From the sequence record PZ357121.2: DNA of 64,000 nt. One strand, given 5' to 3'. Below the pieces are notes generated by a model, which saw only the letters and a list, made by a program, of their open reading frames with translations, was not told the DNA's origin and did no database searches. Source of the stretch: a phage. Below are positions 11,600-54,041 of the stretch, one piece after another. How positions within the stretch are numbered: the stretch's first letter is position 1; the number at the start of each line of letters is the position of its first letter. Made by a program: the position numbers and the translations under genes.

Positions 11600-12316
11600 A
11601 TGAATTATAACTCAATATACGAAAAGCTTATCACCAATGCTAAATCAAGAAGTTTAGATGGTTATACAGAACGTCATCACATTATACCACAATGTTTAGG
11701 TGGAAGTGATGATGCTTTAAACTTAGTAGACTTAACACCAGAAGAACATTATTTGGCACATCAACTGTTGGTAAAAATCCATCCAGATAATGCCTCTTTA
11801 ATATATGCTGCTCGTATGATGACTATCTCATCTCCTAAAGCAGATAGAAGCAAAAACAAATTATTTGGATGGCTTCGACGTAAGAATCAAGAAGTTCAAA
11901 AGAACAAAGAATTCACTGCTGAAACCCGTAAGAAAATGTCCGAGTCTGCAAAAAATAAACCAAAGATTACATGTCCACACTGCGGTTTAACCGGCACTGA
12001 AGGAAACATGAGACGTTGGCATTTTGATAACTGTAAACAGGGCCCTACGCCTAAAATAGTAAAACTTGATCAAGAAACAAAGGATAAAATAATTAAAACC
12101 ATGGCCACGAAAATTTGGAAAGAAGATTCTTGCCCGTTTTGTGGCTTAACTACTAAGTTATCGGCGTTAAAGCCGCATATAAAATTCTGTAAATCAAATC
12201 CTAACAGAAAGAAAAAAGAGGACAAGAAAATTAAATGTCCTCATTGCGATAAAATAGGGATCCCTGCTAATATGCATCGTTGGCATTTTGATAACTGTAA
12301 ACATAAGCCTCATTAA
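11600..12316 (+). CDS. HNH homing endonuclease with three tandem zinc-finger modules
   Basis: 238 aa; HNH motif ERHHIIPQCLGG..N; repeats CPHCGLTGTEGNMRRWHFDNCK / CPFCGLTT..KFCK / CPHCDKIGIPANMHRWHFDNCK; only plus-strand gene among minus-strand replication genes. Confidence 0.85.
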   Translation: MNYNSIYEKLITNAKSRSLDGYTERHHIIPQCLGGSDDALNLVDLTPEEHYLAHQLLVKIHPDNASLIYAARMMTISSPKADRSKNKLFGWLRRKNQEVQKNKEFTAETRKKMSESAKNKPKITCPHCGLTGTEGNMRRWHFDNCKQGPTPKIVKLDQETKDKIIKTMATKIWKEDSCPFCGLTTKLSALKPHIKFCKSNPNRKKKEDKKIKCPHCDKIGIPANMHRWHFDNCKHKPH

Positions 12317-23276: not shown

Positions 23277-23808
23277 ACGCCTGGAATGCATCGTATACGT
23301 CTTTTTCTGTTTTAGATTGGGCATAATTCAACGCATCAGCGATTTGCCATTTTTCTGCATCCTCAATATGTTTTGCATAGGTGCGTTTAACATAAGGAGA
23401 AAGAACTTTATCGACATTCGCAAATGTAGTTCCACCATACTGATGCGAAGCAACTTGTGCAGTAATTTGTGCCATAATTGCAGTAGCAACACCAATAGAT
23501 TTAGGCGTTTCAATTTGAGCATTGCCGAGCTTAAATCCGTTTTCAAGCATTCCTTTTAAATCTACTAAACAGCAATTAGTAAAAGGCAATGATATACTGT
23601 AATCTAAATCATGAAAATGAATTAATCCAACATTATGGGCATTTACAATATGACTTGGAAGAATACGACAAGCGATATGTTTAGAAACAATACCGGCCAT
23701 TAAATCTCTTTTTGTTGGAAAGACGCGAGAATCTTTGTTGGCGTTTTCTGTATTTAATTCTTTATCTTTATTTGAAATAAAATTTAAAACATCTTTTTCT
23801 AAAGACAT
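23277..23808 (-). CDS. nrdD: anaerobic ribonucleoside-triphosphate reductase NrdD, exon 1
   Basis: ENANKDSRVFPTKRDLMAGIV...AQVASHQYGGTT aligns with E. coli NrdD after its ATP-cone; ORF-track stop at 23263 lies in the intron. Confidence 0.8.
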
Positions 23809-24620
23809 AATTCTAATTTATCCTTTTGAAATTCTTCGTCTAAATATGGGTTCCAACCCATTTTAAACCTTTTGATGAAATTATCAATTCTAAATTTCGG
23901 TAAGTTTAAATCCGCAAAAATAGATGATTTACTTTTAAAATCTGGACTTAAATAATCATATAAAATTTCTGCGTATTTTAACCATAATATACAAGTACCA
24001 GATTTAATTGCTCTCGGAGTTTTCCAAGGTTTTACACCATACATCGGATTTCCACTTCCTTTATGCCTGATAGAAGATGAAATTCCAATTTTAATTTTAG
24101 CTTCCTTTGTATGCGAAAATCCACGATGTGGATTTTCTTTCCAGTATTTTTTAGAAGCTTCTGATATTTTCTTTCTGGCTAAATTAGTATGATGCTTTCC
24201 ATAAAATCCATGATTTTTGCCTTTATTACGATTTCTTTTAATCATGGTTATTGATTGCTTTTCTCTAGTTTCTTTAGAAGGAGAAATACCATATGTCGTA
24301 AATTGGCCATCAGCATATGCTAAATTAAAATACTCTTTATTCCATACATCTTTTTCTATATTCTTTTGAAATTCAGCTTCAATGCTAGTTATTTGTTCAT
24401 CTCCGACTAATTGAAAATATAATATCTCAACTTTCGGCGTTTCTTTCAATAAGGCTTTTTGAAATTCGGAAGATGACGAAGACGAATAATAAAATTTACC
24501 ATTTTTATCAATAATATTCGTTCCGTCAAAAGTGCAATTGGTTTTACTTCCAATGTAATAATATGGCGGGGTTTTAGCATTAATTCTACTAATAAACGAT
24601 AGTTTATATACTACATTCAT
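23799..24620 (-). CDS. free-standing GIY-YIG homing endonuclease (Seg-like)
   Basis: 273 aa; GIY-YIG core VYKLSFISRINAKTPPYYYIGSK; NUMOD3-like repeats (HTKEAKIKIGISSS). Confidence 0.75.
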   Translation of the reverse strand: MNVVYKLSFISRINAKTPPYYYIGSKTNCTFDGTNIIDKNGKFYYSSSSSSEFQKALLKETPKVEILYFQLVGDEQITSIEAEFQKNIEKDVWNKEYFNLAYADGQFTTYGISPSKETREKQSITMIKRNRNKGKNHGFYGKHHTNLARKKISEASKKYWKENPHRGFSHTKEAKIKIGISSSIRHKGSGNPMYGVKPWKTPRAIKSGTCILWLKYAEILYDYLSPDFKSKSSIFADLNLPKFRIDNFIKRFKMGWNPYLDEEFQKDKLELCL

Positions 24621-25125: not shown

Positions 25126-25551
25126 TTAACTTAAACGTCTTTCTAAATATTCAATGTATTCTGCGGCTGCTTGCATCAGGTTACCTTCATAGCCGTCGTT
25201 ATTTTCTTGTCCAGCTAATTTAGCTAATGCATAAGAAATTCGTTCACCTTCGAATTCACCAAGTTTACTACCTAGCACATCCGCAATATCAGCCGAATCA
25301 ATTTCTTCGAGTTCATCTATTGAATGTGATTCCCAGAAGCACCAAAGAGAAGTATCACGGTCATAGATGCAAAGTTTCTCACCAGTGTTCAACATCACTT
25401 CAATAATGCCATGGTCGCCATAACCATCTTCGGTCGTAGTACCAATTACCTTGATGATTGTTCCTTTCTTTAATTCAGGAAACTTGACTTGTAGTTCTTC
25501 ATCTTCTTTAACAATCTTGAACCATTTACCACGTGTGTCAGAAATATTCAT
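25126..25551 (-). CDS. hypothetical acidic protein
   Basis: 141 aa from ATG 25551 (MNISDTRGKWFKIV...), SD GAGGA; longer ORF-track form overlaps the upstream gene. Confidence 0.55.
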   Translation of the reverse strand: MNISDTRGKWFKIVKEDEELQVKFPELKKGTIIKVIGTTTEDGYGDHGIIEVMLNTGEKLCIYDRDTSLWCFWESHSIDELEEIDSADIADVLGSKLGEFEGERISYALAKLAGQENNDGYEGNLMQAAAEYIEYLERRLS

Positions 25552-25552
25552 A

Positions 25553-25723
25553 TCAATATCCTCTATAAAAGTTACGATGAGAACGTTTAGCTTTGCGAAG
25601 CTGACGTTTAGTAGGACGAACTGTAAATGGTTGTCCAGAGAAAAAATTCGGATCTGTTTTAATAAGCAAATACCAATCATGCTTGCCATTTTTTAATAAA
25701 CGGTACAATAATTTAACTTGCAT
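25553..25723 (-). CDS. small basic hypothetical protein
   Basis: 56 aa from ATG 25723; ORF-track start is a TTG. Confidence 0.4.
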   Translation of the reverse strand: MQVKLLYRLLKNGKHDWYLLIKTDPNFFSGQPFTVRPTKRQLRKAKRSHRNFYRGY

Positions 25724-25851: not shown

Positions 25852-26208
25852 TTAACCCCGGAGTTTATTGAGCTCTTCATAATCAATCCAGGATTCTAGC
25901 CCTGACGGCAGGTCACATTCAATGTTCCACAGAAGCTCTTCAATGGCTTGCAGGCGATTATATTCTTCAACGGTAATGGTAACCATTGGTGTAACCGGTT
26001 CTGCCTTTTTAACCATCATGTCGTTCATCAGGACGTAAAGGTCATCACGAACGACAGTGTCGTTCCAACCCCATGATTTGGCTTCGTAAGCTAATGATGA
26101 AGGGAGCACATTTAAAACTTCAATAATAGTTGGAGCATCAGGACCAAGTTCATTGGCACAAACTTCGTATACATCTTGGAAATCTTTAAGATTTAATGAA
26201 TATGTCAT
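25852..26208 (-). CDS. hypothetical protein
   Basis: 118 aa; start region is one copy of a 22-bp direct repeat. Confidence 0.55.
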   Translation of the reverse strand: MTYSLNLKDFQDVYEVCANELGPDAPTIIEVLNVLPSSLAYEAKSWGWNDTVVRDDLYVLMNDMMVKKAEPVTPMVTITVEEYNRLQAIEELLWNIECDLPSGLESWIDYEELNKLRG

Positions 26209-26227
26209 TTAAAATATTCTCGCAGTT
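26206..26227. repeat. 22-bp direct repeat, copy 1 (CATTTAAAATATTCTCGCAGTT)
   Basis: Identical to 26521..26542; covers start codon and RBS of gene 25852..26208. Confidence 0.7.
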
Positions 26228-26523
26228 TATTGTTCTACACATGCACAGGAAACTTCGAAATCAGGACCGTCGTACTTCCAGTGATATTCACCAACAGGAA
26301 TCCAGTCACCATGCTCGTTTTCTTCATAGTCCTCAGGCTCAAGGCCAACGAATCGCCATTGGACACCGATGATTCTATTACCCATCATTACTCGAAATTC
26401 GCCCCATGGATTATCAATAGCATACTGAATATCGTTCTTAGCACGAGAACACATTTCTTGATATAACAAAGTTTCTAATTCGTCCTGGTCATAAGGGCCT
26501 GGGAAAGTTAAATCGATATTCAT
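26227..26523 (-). CDS. hypothetical acidic protein (cassette flanked by 22-bp direct repeats)
   Basis: 98 aa ORF lying exactly between the two repeat copies. Confidence 0.55.
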   Translation of the reverse strand: MNIDLTFPGPYDQDELETLLYQEMCSRAKNDIQYAIDNPWGEFRVMMGNRIIGVQWRFVGLEPEDYEENEHGDWIPVGEYHWKYDGPDFEVSCACVEQ

Positions 26524-26783
26524 TTAAAATATTCTCGCAGTTGGTCAAATCCACCAATGTGACTTCCGTCAGGAGCAAACACTTGAGGCATCGTCAATCC
26601 AACATGTGTTTCACGTCCAAGCTTAGCCAGAAGCTCAGCAATTTTTTCTTCATCGAATACACCTTTTTCTGGCATAACATTAATGAATTCGAACGGCTGT
26701 TTCTTAACAGTCAGCAATCGTTTCGCATTATCACAATAAATGCATTTATGAATAGTAGAGTCATACCCGTACACTTTAAACAT
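26520..26783 (-). CDS. nrdC: thioredoxin/glutaredoxin NrdC
   Basis: 87 aa from ATG 26783 (MFKVYGYDSTIHKCIYCDNAKRLL...), SD AAGGAAAA; matches T4 NrdC. Confidence 0.9.
   Translation of the reverse strand: MFKVYGYDSTIHKCIYCDNAKRLLTVKKQPFEFINVMPEKGVFDEEKIAELLAKLGRETHVGLTMPQVFAPDGSHIGGFDQLREYFK
26521..26542. repeat. 22-bp direct repeat, copy 2 (CATTTAAAATATTCTCGCAGTT)
   Basis: Identical to 26206..26227; covers the nrdC 3' end and the start of gene 26227..26523. Confidence 0.7.
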
Positions 26784-27189: not shown

Positions 27190-27494
27190 TATAATGTTCT
27201 CTCAAATTTGTGGAAGCATTTACGGCATTTCAATTTCAAGTTATCAGTGGTCCAGTTAACCAGTTGGACTTGGATAGTTCCACATTCCGGACATGGATGT
27301 TTTGCTGCCGATTTGGCAGCATTTTCACGTCGTTCAACCATTTTCATGATTTCGTTCCATGCCGGAGGAACGAACTCTTCTTCACTGTGGATTTTATCTC
27401 GCTGAACAAATTCAATCTTTGAACTATCGTCAATAAACTTAACCAAGCCGTGATTAGTGCTCATATCAATATCCTCTAAAAGACGTAGTTTCAT
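27189..27494 (-). CDS. zinc-ribbon protein
   Basis: 101 aa; CPECG...CRKC four-Cys ribbon. Confidence 0.55.
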   Translation of the reverse strand: MKLRLLEDIDMSTNHGLVKFIDDSSKIEFVQRDKIHSEEEFVPPAWNEIMKMVERRENAAKSAAKHPCPECGTIQVQLVNWTTDNLKLKCRKCFHKFERTL

Positions 27495-28472: not shown

Positions 28473-28501
28473 ATTATACTCCAACCGTCCTTGGTTGTAA
28501 A
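28473..28501 (-). promoter_or_regulatory. sigma70-type early promoter (TTTACA, 17 nt, TATAAT)
   Basis: Minus strand reads GTTTACAACCAAGGACGGTTGGAGTATAAT about 30 nt upstream of ATG 28444. Confidence 0.55.
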
Positions 28502-28506
28502 CTGAT

Positions 28507-29439
28507 TTATGATTTTAATGCATTCATTGCGTTAAAAAGTTTAGAGTACTGCAACTGGAGCTTGGTAACTACTTGTTGAGCATCACGAAGCTTAGCTTGT
28601 GCTTTGTCAAGTTCAACAGACAGTTGGTCCACAGTGGCTTTGATTTGATTATAATAGTAATCTTCTGCAGGAAGAAGACCGTTAGAGATTTCCAGTTTAG
28701 ACGACGGTGTGCCGTTAAACATAACAGGTTGTGCTGAAGCTGAATTAATCTTACCGATAGTCGGGGCGACAATAATTGACGCTTCGAACGTTGCATTTTC
28801 CTTTTTAAGATTTTTATAATATTCAGAGTCTTTGTGCCACCATGGCGCAGGAACCTTTTTACCAATAGATACACGAGCCTGGATAGCGATATGGCCCTTA
28901 TTCTTGATAACGTCGATAATATTAAGCTCACGAGAATAAATTGCTTTAATCTGGTGAATATTATCACCTAACACTTCCAACGCTTGGTGGAATACACGAG
29001 CAACGTTATCATTCTTAGGTTTATACGTAAGAGTGAACTCGTTCTCACTGATAACCATGATTTCCAACTTATCGTAAGTATATTTCAAATGTTTCATGTT
29101 AATTGCTTGAGGACGAATACGAGAAGCAATGGCCATCAGATTGTTAAGGTTATTCCGGAACTGCTTAGCGAAATATTGTCCTTCACCACCAATACAAAAA
29201 TTACGAAGTTTCTGTTTGGCTAATAAACGGCTGAACTCACCATTTTTAATGAACTCTTTAACGGGGGTGTTAGTAACGCATTCAAATTGAGTAAACTTAC
29301 GAGAAGTAATTCCATAATACGAACAGATTTCCTCAATCTCTTCAGGAGTCTTTACAGGCATACGGATAGGATTAGGACCTGGGGTATATGCGTTCGAGGT
29401 AAATTCTTTGATAAGTTCTCTACGTGTAATAAAAGCCAT
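28507..29439 (-). CDS. hypothetical 310-aa protein with C-terminal coiled coil (early gene B)
   Basis: Own promoter; C-terminal coiled coil KLRDAQQVVTKLQLQYSKL. Confidence 0.65.
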   Translation of the reverse strand: MAFITRRELIKEFTSNAYTPGPNPIRMPVKTPEEIEEICSYYGITSRKFTQFECVTNTPVKEFIKNGEFSRLLAKQKLRNFCIGGEGQYFAKQFRNNLNNLMAIASRIRPQAINMKHLKYTYDKLEIMVISENEFTLTYKPKNDNVARVFHQALEVLGDNIHQIKAIYSRELNIIDVIKNKGHIAIQARVSIGKKVPAPWWHKDSEYYKNLKKENATFEASIIVAPTIGKINSASAQPVMFNGTPSSKLEISNGLLPAEDYYYNQIKATVDQLSVELDKAQAKLRDAQQVVTKLQLQYSKLFNAMNALKS

Positions 29440-29465: not shown

Positions 29466-29494
29466 ATTATACTCCAACCATCCTTGGTTGTACA
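29466..29494 (-). promoter_or_regulatory. sigma70-type early promoter sharing its spacer with 28473..28501
   Basis: Minus strand reads TGTACAACCAAGGATGGTTGGAGTATAAT; spacer differs by 1 nt from the neighbouring promoter. Confidence 0.5.
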
Positions 29495-31080: not shown

Positions 31081-31138
31081 GTTTTACCTCCAGTAGTTGA
31101 TAGGTCTATAATAACATAACCATAGACCTTGTAAACAA

Positions 31139-35558: not shown

Positions 35559-35787
35559 ACATTTGCAATTCGGTGTGGGCTTCAGCCATCTTTTTCATAG
35601 CTCTGTTAATGTCGATGTCTCCATCTTCGCAACCATGAGCATTTTCCCAATCAGATACCGCATTAGCGTACTCTTCAATCAAAAACATTAACTTTGAAAT
35701 CTTTTCTTTACGCGTCATAATGTTCTCCTCTAGTAAGTAAGGACTACTATAACACAACCTGAGGAGAAGTAAACTGATAGATGCCAA
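35539..35787 (-). CDS. hypothetical protein (rI.-1 position)
   Basis: 82 aa ORF downstream of rI. Confidence 0.5.
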   Translation of the reverse strand: MASISLLLLRLCYSSPYLLEENIMTRKEKISKLMFLIEEYANAVSDWENAHGCEDGDIDINRAMKKMAEAHTELQMYVNEIM

Positions 35788-39558: not shown

Positions 39559-39608
39559 TCTCCTCTAGTTGACAGGTCTATAGTAACACAACTAGAGGAG
39601 AAGTAAAC
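39559..39608 (-). promoter_or_regulatory. early promoter (GTTTAC..TACTAT) inside a 13-bp-arm inverted repeat whose downstream arm carries the regB SD
   Basis: TCTCCTCTAGTTG ... CAACTAGAGGAGA; on the minus strand the proximal arm contains GAGGAG 8 nt before ATG 39551. Confidence 0.5.
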
Positions 39609-39907
39609 TACTCTTTGAAAGGAATTAACTTTTTAACTGCTTTAGATACTTCGTCACGAACCTGGTGGAAGTTCTTGAGCTGTTCAAGGCGTTGTTCGTA
39701 ATACGCAATCTCATCTTCTTCAAGACAATCGTCAGCGTCTTCTTTCAGATATGCCTTGTACTCATTAAAGAGGGCCCATAGGCGGTTCTCAAAGTCATCA
39801 AGGCTTTGAATTTTCTTGTGCTTCGGAACAAGGCCAAAAGGATTGCTTTCAGTTATGCGTCTAGATGCTTCATAATGAGTTCCAAAGCCTGATAGGATTT
39901 GAGCCAT
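39608..39907 (-). CDS. hypothetical protein
   Basis: 99 aa ORF. Confidence 0.55.
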
Positions 39908-44947: not shown

Positions 44948-45253
44948 TTATTTTCCTCGACATTCTTTAATGAAATTTTCTAGATTGGTAGATTCAATAG
45001 CTTTTTTACGAGCTTCTGCGTGTTCTTCTTCAGACAATTTACATTTATAATTGACCCAGACATTATGGTCGAAACTAGTCGTGGCATATAATAACAATGC
45101 TCCAACGAATAGCAAAAACGGCGATAAGAATACAAAACCAGGAACACCATCCATATCGTAAGCCTTTTGTAATACTGCAACAGAAAGAGCTGCGTAAAAA
45201 GGTGATGCAAATATTGTTAAAAGACCAATTCGGTTGGTTTCGCCTAATTTCAT
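44948..45253 (-). CDS. membrane protein (C-terminal FIKECR junction motif)
   Basis: 101 aa; two TM segments; ends ...ENFIKECRGK; PeSL promoter upstream. Confidence 0.55.
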   Translation of the reverse strand: MKLGETNRIGLLTIFASPFYAALSVAVLQKAYDMDGVPGFVFLSPFLLFVGALLLYATTSFDHNVWVNYKCKLSEEEHAEARKKAIESTNLENFIKECRGK

Positions 45254-45273
45254 AATATTCTCCTCATGTTTTA

Positions 45274-45311
45274 ATAGGACTACTATAACATAGTCCTATC
45301 ATGTTGTAAAC
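45274..45311 (-). promoter_or_regulatory. early promoter with palindrome (PeSL-type cassette)
   Basis: ATAGGACTA-CTATAACA-TAGTCCTAT then tgtaaac. Confidence 0.55.
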
Positions 45312-45323
45312 AGTTTTGCGAAA

Positions 45324-46548: not shown

Positions 46549-46567
46549 TGTGGACTCCGTTTAATTT

Positions 46568-46606
46568 GATAGGACTACTATAACATAGCCCTATCTTGTT
46601 GTAAAC
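46568..46606 (-). promoter_or_regulatory. early promoter with palindrome (PeSL-type cassette, one mismatch)
   Basis: GATAGGACTA-CTATAACA-TAGCCCTATC then tgtaaac. Confidence 0.5.
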
Positions 46607-46610
46607 TGTT

Positions 46611-46808
46611 TTAGCAAGAATAACTAGATGATACCCAGCCTTGAACAGTAATACTATTATTTGATACCGAGATCGCGTTCTGGAGATTCAGGCCTGCGTT
46701 ATCTTCAATCCACAATGTAACTTCTTCGCGTTCTTCTGTTGCAATTTGGAACAGGTTTTCTAGGGCAGCTACTGCCGTACGTACAGCACAATCTAATTCA
46801 CGAGACAT
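46611..46808 (-). CDS. small protein, paralog family member 3 (C-terminus GWVSSSYSC)
   Basis: 65 aa; shares MS(K/R) start, TTAAGGAA RBS junction and W-[VI]-[SA]-S-S-x-x-C terminus with two upstream paralogs. Confidence 0.55.
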   Translation of the reverse strand: MSRELDCAVRTAVAALENLFQIATEEREEVTLWIEDNAGLNLQNAISVSNNSITVQGWVSSSYSC

Positions 46809-49707: not shown

Positions 49708-50013
49708 TTAATTTTTCCAACTTAACAACTTGTAGTGTCCTTCATTCATACGTGGTTTATCCCAAGAAATACTAATATATGATTCGCTGTCAATAGAAGT
49801 CGCCGGGTTTTTCTCTACCGTAAGACCTTCACTTTCCAGCCATTCAATAGTATTTGCGCATAAATCGGAAGAACACCTCATTGGAAACCGGCAAGATTTT
49901 TCACCTTTAGCTGCAGTGTTATACATCTTTTCTAAAATACGCTTTTGCACGTTTTTAAAAATAGTTTCAGCAGATTCTTCAGATTTTTTATTCAGTTCAG
50001 TATAAAGATTCAT
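49708..50013 (-). CDS. hypothetical protein
   Basis: 101 aa from ATG 50013, SD GAGGAG. Confidence 0.5.
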   Translation of the reverse strand: MNLYTELNKKSEESAETIFKNVQKRILEKMYNTAAKGEKSCRFPMRCSSDLCANTIEWLESEGLTVEKNPATSIDSESYISISWDKPRMNEGHYKLLSWKN

Positions 50014-50070
50014 AATATTCTCCTCATTAATAGGGCTCATAATATCTCAATCATAAGCCCGTGTAAACAA

Positions 50071-53652: not shown

Positions 53653-53659
53653 TTGTTTT

Positions 53660-53698
53660 GATAGGACTACTATAACATAGTCCTATCATCATGTAAAC
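53660..53698 (-). promoter_or_regulatory. early promoter with 28-bp perfect palindrome (PeSL-type cassette)
   Basis: GATAGGACTA-CTATAACA-TAGTCCTATC then tgtaaac; identical to the 35284 copy. Confidence 0.55.
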
Positions 53699-53700
53699 TA

Positions 53701-53964
53701 TTAAATACCAGCTTCGCGTTTAACATAATCGACGTAAGCTTGGATAGCTTTCTTGCTGGTAATTTTTACCTGACCACGACCATTGCCTTCTTTAGAGTTT
53801 TTCTTAACAACTACATTACCATCTTTAACACCCCATACATGGACGTAAGTACCGATGTTTCGGTCGTAGAACATTGCATGGTCGTTGTTGTAAGAGAATG
53901 ATTCGTAGTTCTCTGTCAGAGTAGAAGATTGAGATTCGGCGATAAATTCTTTATAGGTTTTCAT
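53701..53964 (-). CDS. ipI: internal protein I-like (capsid-injected, CTS-bearing)
   Basis: 87 aa; starts MKTYKEFIAES (capsid-targeting sequence); T4 ipI position next to 57B; early promoter with inverted repeat upstream. Confidence 0.75.
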   Translation of the reverse strand: MKTYKEFIAESQSSTLTENYESFSYNNDHAMFYDRNIGTYVHVWGVKDGNVVVKKNSKEGNGRGQVKITSKKAIQAYVDYVKREAGI

Positions 53965-54041
53965 TTTATTTCCTTGAGGCTGTTTATTTGATAGGATGAT
54001 AGTAACACACCATCATCCTTATGTAAACTGTTTTGTGAAAA

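Follow-up and report, generated by a model that had tools for sequence, protein, structure and literature searches.

The phage DNA analysed here, a stretch of 64,000 nucleotides (nt) of sequence record PZ357121.2 referred to below as the window, belongs to an RB69-like phage of the genus Mosigvirus in the Straboviridae, the T4 family. It carries a single small gene, a homolog of T4 gene 49.3, which lies between nrdC and a gene termed here Y and is bracketed by two copies of a short direct repeat. All three genes are encoded on the minus strand, and a 951-nt region of this locus is 98% identical to phage KMB38 and finds matches in 395 phage records. The nrdC gene (26520..26783) codes for a phage thioredoxin/glutaredoxin of 87 amino acids (aa), with a match to the Pfam Glutaredoxin family and the annotation 'NrdC thioredoxin' in RB69. 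Its stop codon overlaps, in the form ATGA, the ATG of the 98-aa open reading frame (ORF) of 49.3 at 26227..26523, which is followed by Y (25852..26208), a 118-aa ORF assigned to phrog_11244 that starts at the ATG contained in the second repeat copy.

A preliminary description of this DNA had reported perfect 22-bp direct repeats around ORF 26227-26523 and had read them as the mark left by the insertion of a gene module at a short shared junction sequence. The 22-mer CATTTAAAATATTCTCGCAGTT is indeed present in two exact copies, at 26206-26227 and 26521-26542. A search of the 64 kb with up to 3 mismatches allowed gave no third one, and none of 100 dinucleotide-preserving shuffles of the window contained two matches. 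The maximal exact repeat is, however, 23 bp long (TCATTTAAAATATTCTCGCAGTT, at 26205-26227 and 26520-26542); the starts of its two copies are 315 bp apart, and it reads AACTGCGAGAATATTTTAAATGA on the strand of the genes. Copy A (26520..26542, minus strand) lies at the start of the ORF and contains the seven codons with which nrdC ends (QLREYFK) and its TGA stop, overlapped by the ATG(A) with which 49.3 begins, while copy B (26205..26227, minus strand) lies at its stop and comprises the last A of the 49.3 TAA codon, an 18-nt intergenic spacer and the ATG plus one nucleotide of Y. The bracketing of the ORF and the assignment of one copy to the nrdC coding end and of the other to an intergenic junction were therefore correctly described. 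Each copy had also been credited with providing both the ribosome-binding site and the ATG of the following gene; the ATG is indeed provided, but the Shine-Dalgarno-like element that can be read from the sequence amounts to a weak GAG 10 nt 5' of it, and expression probably relies largely on translational coupling. The whole structure, repeat-49.3-repeat, occupies 26205..26542 on the minus strand, and RB69-type genomes, with a single repeat copy, are about 315 bp shorter across the locus. The presence/absence unit thus measures 315 bp, and its end points may be placed anywhere within the 23-bp repeat.

Copy A is invariant across the 7/7 occupied Mosigvirus loci compared and is the only copy in the inspected genomes without 49.3. 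In every lineage examined the nrdC 3' end, which forms the left boundary of the variable region, is a copy A-type sequence or a close variant of it, always terminated by AAATGA. Copy B carries 1-2 substitutions in phiC120, APCEc01 and KMB38. Copy B matches nrdC coding sequence exactly, and nrdC has this ending in all relatives, from which it follows that nrdC is the source of copy B and not the reverse; we read copy B as a fossil of the nrdC 3' end that would now act as the translation-initiation region of Y. The substitutions found in some lineages indicate that the duplication is old and is not undergoing homogenisation. A second copy made of duplicated nrdC coding sequence cannot represent a shared junction sequence that was already in place when the gene arrived, and it requires one non-homologous join at its origin. 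Neither is the repeat a general ribosome-binding element recurring at many junctions: in the window and in 13 Mosigvirus loci searched with 2-4 mismatches tolerated, the sequence was found at these two junctions and nowhere else.

The bracketed ORF aligns over its full length with T4 gp49.3 (38% identity over 99 aa, E=9e-24) and matches phrog_4203 (E=3.6e-45). The family PF26871 (Phage_T4_Y04L) is assigned to its homologs in precomputed Pfam hits, and the ORF itself gave no direct match in a local Pfam search. Homologs of 49.3 were detected by tblastn in 306 phage records. In T4 and JS10, 49.3 stands immediately 3' of nrdC with an ATGA overlap, and the order nrdC-49.3 is also present in the metagenomic contig L033. 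Since 49.3 directly follows nrdC in T4 and JS10, the bracketed ORF is no foreign module and, judging from these comparisons, is the ortholog of T4 gene 49.3 and an old resident of the accessory region between nrdC and gene 49. Within Mosigvirus it is under purifying selection, with a ratio of nonsynonymous to synonymous divergence (dN/dS) of 0.10, and its mean synonymous divergence (dS) is 0.29 as compared to 0.22 for nrdC; the gene is as old in the genus as nrdC itself. An AlphaFold2 model of 49.3 (predicted local distance difference test score, pLDDT, of 82) had no significant fold match in the PDB (best E=0.69). The sole experimental datum on gp49.3 that we found in the literature comes from T6, where the OLD defence was inhibited by the neighbouring Gp49.2 but not by Gp49.3 (PMC13096335).

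The distribution of the gene among relatives was determined on database records, in which some phages are entered twice (GenBank and RefSeq), a record being counted as Mosigvirus-type when it shows the nrdC.7-nrdC arrangement. There are 149 such records, 57 with 49.3 and 92 without. When a 96-nt junction query was aligned by blastn, the match extended through the 23-bp copy after 49.3 in 57/57 records (megablast, with its 28-nt word size, gave 29), and the records with this copy B structure include many independent isolates. Among the 57 records, no Mosigvirus genome carrying the 49.3 allele group lacks the second copy. Comparison with related genomes, which the preliminary description had proposed as a check, separated them into two classes, with either the gene and two copies or no gene and exactly one copy. 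The occupied state, with two copies 315 bp apart, is found in the window, KMB38, NBG1, LF82-3, APCEc01, phiC120 and one IMG/VR contig, the single occupied Mosigvirus among the 15 loci obtained by scanning IMG/VR with NrdC. The seven empty genomes inspected (RB69, mar005P1, JS09, AV116, a20, pEB20 and LH01) have exactly one copy and an intact junction of the form nrdC-ATGA-next gene, with no further scar; where the next gene is Y, the ATGA overlap links nrdC straight to it. As in insertions and deletions at short direct repeats, the form without the gene keeps precisely one repeat, is scarless and has a span about 315 bp shorter. The proposed insertion of a gene module is therefore upheld as to the two classes of relatives but not as to the novelty of the gene, which is the 49.3 ortholog, nor as to direction: the data fix neither gain nor loss, and many of the present-day empty genomes, or even all of them, may have arisen by deletion and not be ancestors that never received the gene.

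Occupied and empty genomes are intermixed on neighbour-joining trees built from 1.4 kb upstream and from 1.15 kb downstream of the unit. Both states are present in near-identical genomes: mar005P1 (empty) and APCEc01 (occupied) differ at 10/1400 nt upstream and at 4 of the first 400 nt downstream, and share an nrdC 3' haplotype that is 11-18% divergent from all others over about 200 nt. Downstream of the unit, two diverged alleles of Y, Y1 and Y2, are each found with and without 49.3, so that all four combinations exist, and the sequence between 49.3 and Y consists of the 23-bp repeat alone. These four combinations can be explained only by exchange within the repeat or by repeated precise deletion. 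Depending on the genome, the nrdC ATGA is followed by 49.3, Y1, Y2, Y3 (a DUF7205 gene) or a membrane ORF, which makes the nrdC 3' end a recurrent boundary of gene-sized exchange.

No copy of the nrdC tail was found after 49.3 outside Mosigvirus, in T4, JS10, CF1, KLB8 and the Logan outgroups, indicating that the duplication is lineage-specific; the notion that the repeat might be a universal feature of 49.3 was discarded on the same grounds. The closest outgroup 49.3 (67% aa identity) is that of contig L033, where the gene order is nrdC-ATGA-49.3-ATGA-Y_C. A parallel case was encountered in the Dhakavirus group, in which phages QL01 and WG01 have a 53-aa membrane ORF between nrdC and 49.3. 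An exact 18-bp repeat, TTCAAATGATTGAATTAA, lies on both sides of this ORF (2756-2773 and 2914-2931 in the QL01 locus, L018) and comprises the nrdC stop and the first 49.3 codons, the 53-aa ORF thus beginning with MIEL as 49.3 does. In the sibling phages JS10 and MX01 exactly 158 bp are missing and a single copy is present (JS10 locus L007, 1486-1510), while JS98-type genomes carry the 53-aa membrane ORF and one more ORF. To judge from these junctions, duplication at the nrdC boundary has occurred at least twice, independently in Mosigvirus and in the Dhakavirus group.

We consider it probable that an unequal crossover generated the nrdC-tail duplication and that this duplication now provides the short homology for precise loss and gain of 49.3. 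The duplication would have had a single origin, in the ancestor of the RB69-like phages (Mosigvirus), through unequal recombination between two T4-like genomes, one with the order nrdC-49.3, as in T4, JS10 and the closest outgroup, and the other with the order nrdC-Y, as in RB69. One non-homologous join would have fused the stop codon of 49.3 with the nrdC of the other genome, 22-23 nt short of the nrdC end, the two sequences sharing at most the dinucleotide AA at that point, and would have produced the arrangement nrdC-49.3-[nrdC tail]-Y in one step. Since the tail carries the initiation region and the ATG of Y, both 49.3 and Y would have stayed expressed. From then on the 23 bp could have been used as short homology by the recombination and replication machinery of the phage itself, as established T4 biology would lead one to expect: the unit would be precisely deleted by intramolecular exchange or slippage, and regained by unequal exchange between co-infecting genomes or through ordinary flanking homology, with no dedicated recombinase involved.

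Several points weigh against this scenario. Its basis is the comparison of finished genomes, which gives the direction of change for no pair, and the non-homologous join at its origin is reconstructed. The databases contain no donor whose 49.3 is nearly identical, the best outgroup standing at 67% aa identity. T4-like phages recombine freely, and the interspersion of the two states on the trees could reflect flanking exchange of two old alleles and not repeated use of the repeat. A homology of 23 bp is short for efficient UvsX-type homologous recombination, and rates may be low. Finally, the variability of copy B does not exceed that of coding DNA, and a test of selective constraint on it (2/19 polymorphic sites versus 32/98 third positions, p=0.058) is only suggestive; a test of constraint on copy A (p=0.003), in which most positions are not third positions, was not like-for-like and is not relied on.

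The explanation closest to the scenario just described, from which it differs just in direction and in whether reinsertion happens, is that the two-copy state is ancestral to the sampled Mosigviruses and that the empty genomes are secondary, possibly recurrent precise deletions, the repeat then marking a gene that is being lost and not one inserted into present-day genomes. The synonymous divergence of 49.3 (mean dS 0.29 versus 0.22 for nrdC) together with its purifying selection speaks against a recent arrival, the order nrdC-49.3 is widespread in other genera, copy B is old enough to have acquired substitutions in some lineages, and among the spontaneous rearrangements of T4, deletions between short repeats are the most frequent (PMC9391042). 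Empty genomes are nevertheless the majority (92/149 records) and have three different downstream genes, Y1, Y2 and Y3, the last of which (DUF7205) never stands behind 49.3 in the inspected Mosigvirus loci; moreover, a founding duplication is still required, so that an insertion-type event is merely shifted to an earlier time. We regard deletion alone as a serious possibility that falls somewhat short of probable. That the unit might instead be a dedicated mobile cassette, whether integron-like, a transposon with a 23-bp target-site duplication or the cargo of a homing endonuclease, appears improbable. Direct repeats do resemble a target-site duplication, T4-like PeSL cassettes (see below) form mini-circles (PMC2839356), amplification of the locus in T6 is driven by SegB, a homing endonuclease that cleaves the pin-nrdC.2 region (PMC13096335), and a homing-endonuclease-like ORF with a NUMOD3 motif (23799-24620), lying about 1.6 kb downstream of the unit, might stimulate recombination. 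This ORF is missing, however, in both RB69 and KMB38, which cover the two states, and the unit encodes the 98-aa ORF alone, without a recombinase. A check of the unit ends found no terminal inverted repeats, the best pairs being internal and weak; the 23-mer is the local target, the nrdC tail, and not a sequence borne by an element; what is duplicated in the Dhakavirus-group parallel is another sequence, that of its own local junction; and 49.3 is found at one place per genome, the sole record with two places being a Dhakavirus.

Early-promoter stem-loop (PeSL) elements of T4-like phages offer a further possible model, in which the repeat would be a promoter-plus-stem-loop element mediating modular shuffling. 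The topology is the same, one phage having an ORF between two copies where its sibling has a single copy (PMC2839356), and genuine PeSL-like promoter repeats are present elsewhere in the window, for example at 28473-28499 and 29466-29492. One of the two copies is protein-coding, however, minus-strand promoter-like and terminator-like sites overlap neither of them (26205-26227 and 26520-26542), and the RNA folds of the two 71-nt contexts are no better than those of shuffled sequences (z = -0.89 and 0.05), so that a regulatory cassette of this type is very unlikely here. An origin by chance, by convergent selection of favourable translation-initiation regions or through faulty assembly can hardly be credited at all. 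Similar ribosome-binding regions are admittedly plentiful in AT-rich phage DNA, and two more repeats resembling translation-initiation regions occur in the window (25548-25568 with 27461-27481, and 45249-45267 with 50009-50027). Yet no shuffle reproduced even two approximate copies, the seven nrdC codons inside the repeat have no cause to recur by convergence, and the same structure is found in 57 database records.

The locus is thus a single-gene presence/absence polymorphism bounded by short direct repeats, which is an already known kind of variation and calls for no new mechanism. Its distinctive trait, from the reading of the junctions, lies in a repeat that consists of a duplicated coding tail and doubles as a translation-initiation region; in the papers searched, no description of the nrdC-tail duplication was found. 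T4 has been shown experimentally to make deletions and tandem amplifications between microhomologies of 6-10 bp (Srikant et al. 2022, PMC9391042), and in T6 the homologous 49.1-nrdC.1 locus undergoes segmental amplification when the OLD defence exerts pressure (SegB study 2026, PMC13096335). These events resemble the present one in their flanking short direct repeats, in the one copy left after deletion, in the responsibility of the phage's own recombination machinery and in their neighbourhood, the 49.1-nrdC.1 and nrdC.5 accessory anti-defence genes having been amplified or deleted experimentally. They differ in that they took place in the laboratory at chance microhomologies of 6-10 bp, whereas the nrdC-tail repeat is 23 bp long, is found in natural isolates and is itself the product of an earlier rearrangement. 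With PeSLs the locus shares a single small ORF in a hyperplastic region, two copies as opposed to one in a sibling phage, and a recombination between copies that is thought to excise or insert the ORF while the neighbours stay expressed (PMC2839356, PMC4122927). In PeSL mini-circles the crossovers map to the translation-initiation part, from the -10 box to the ATG or Shine-Dalgarno sequence (Arbiol et al. 2010, PMC2839356; Comeau et al. 2014, PMC4122927). In contrast to PeSLs, which form a dispersed family, the nrdC-tail repeat occurs at one locus, has neither promoter nor stem-loop and, consisting of a coding tail with a stop/start overlap, preserves the translational and not the transcriptional context; it probably shares the consequence of PeSLs. 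Transposon target-site duplications and integron cassettes likewise show direct repeats of target sequence around a gene-sized segment, and integron cassettes at attC/attI sites are, in addition, promoter-less and expressed from an upstream context. The 49.3 unit, however, lacks a transposase or integrase, inverted ends and a conserved element-borne site, and target-site duplications are typically much shorter than 23 bp. The annotated neighbourhoods showed no integrase, and an integron attC-like site was rejected, the 23-mer being found only at the nrdC tail and after 49.3 and the Dhakavirus-group cassette being bounded by another sequence.

A duplicated coding tail can serve both the translation initiation of the next gene and, as homology, the precise excision of the preceding one. 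AAATGA endings are found on several interchangeable ORFs, and junction duplications of 23 bp (Mosigvirus) and 18 bp (Dhakavirus group) are at hand. It may be asked whether stop/start-overlap junctions (typically ...AAATGA) and their adjacent codons could be portable, promoter-independent recombination linkers, a translational counterpart of PeSLs serving ORF shuffling in general. We raise this idea tentatively and think it rather doubtful. If it were true, such linkers would let single ORFs enter and leave the nrdC-49 accessory and anti-defence island with translational coupling always maintained, and small circles of about 315 bp could be taken up again wherever an nrdC tail is present.

In T-even phages the nrdC-49 region forms an island of accessory genes, and how single promoter-less ORFs are gained or lost there without disturbing the expression of their neighbours is only partly understood. 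Anti-defence functions are established for genes close by: Pin inhibits Lon, T6 Gp49.2 inhibits OLD (PMC13096335) and T4 NrdC.5 counters Dsr1 (PMC9391042). The locus described here is a very clean natural example of such turnover, with 57 records with and 92 without the gene, identical junctions and near-isogenic pairs (APCEc01/mar005P1), and it offers a handle for measuring the rates of gene loss and gain at short homologies in a genus of therapeutic phages.

The downstream gene Y unites in one reading frame two modules that other lineages encode as separate ORFs. Its N-terminal half resembles a 62-aa ORF of JS98-type phages and its C-terminal half resembles 56-57-aa ORFs of pEB20, LH01 and metagenomic contigs (modules compared at 25852-26208 in the window and in loci L019, 2919-3107; L032, 2815-2988; and L004, 1995-2165). 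The C-terminal half matches phrog_3402 (E=1.8e-32), which is annotated, by prediction, as 'antitoxin from a toxin-antitoxin system'. Homology of Y to T4 49.2, the OLD inhibitor, was considered and dropped, BLASTP giving no alignment. In the RB69 record (L001, AY303349.1), one extra G around locus position 1924 (GGAACGGACAC, versus GGAAC-GACAC in the window and in mar005P1) breaks Y up into RB69ORF092c and ORF091c and represents a true frameshift or else a mistake in the 2003 sequence.

Other variable features were recorded in the same neighbourhood. The NUMOD3-containing ORF (23799-24620, minus strand; 273 aa) directly follows gene 49, which encodes endonuclease VII, and is annotated as 'homing endonuclease' in AV116. 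It is missing in RB69, KMB38, APCEc01 and others, where nrdD stands directly after gene 49, and constitutes another presence/absence polymorphism of this neighbourhood. AV116 (L003) and a20 (L031) have no pin, the gene for the Lon protease inhibitor, between the ORFs of the 49.1 region and gene 49, and the pin of LH01 is longer (183 aa).

The window also contains repeats of other kinds. Two 27-nt copies, 96% identical, at 28473-28499 and 29466-29492 (minus strand) are early-promoter-like with an embedded palindrome (TTTACA/GTACA-ACCAAGGAyGGTTGG-AGTATAAT) and flank a 310-aa DUF7235 ORF (28507-29439) that is an nrdC.5 homolog by position; this arrangement is PeSL-like, unlike that of the nrdC-tail repeat. 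Direct-repeat families of 36-48 nt, at 45270-45317, 46565-46612, 53657-53704 and 53987-54034 and again at 31102-31137, 35740-35775 and 39574-39609, contain the palindrome AGGACTA...TAGTCCT and TGTAAAC / TATAAC motifs, and are probably dispersed elements of the PeSL type. Two further repeats are of the translation-initiation type. The sequence TT(A/T)TAGAGGATATTGATATGA occurs at 25548-25568 and 27461-27481, with 20/21 identical positions and 1.9 kb apart, at the probable start of pin and within the first codons of nrdC.2, and an exact 19-mer, ATGAGGAGAATATTATGAA, occurs at 45249-45267 and 50009-50027, 4.8 kb apart; such shared initiation regions may be further recombination junctions. Lastly, a 77-nt direct repeat at 11963-12039 and 12227-12303 (73% identical, 264 bp apart), which ends in an identical 26-nt stretch, CGTTGGCATTTTGATAACTGTAAACA, has the appearance of tandem paralogous coding segments.

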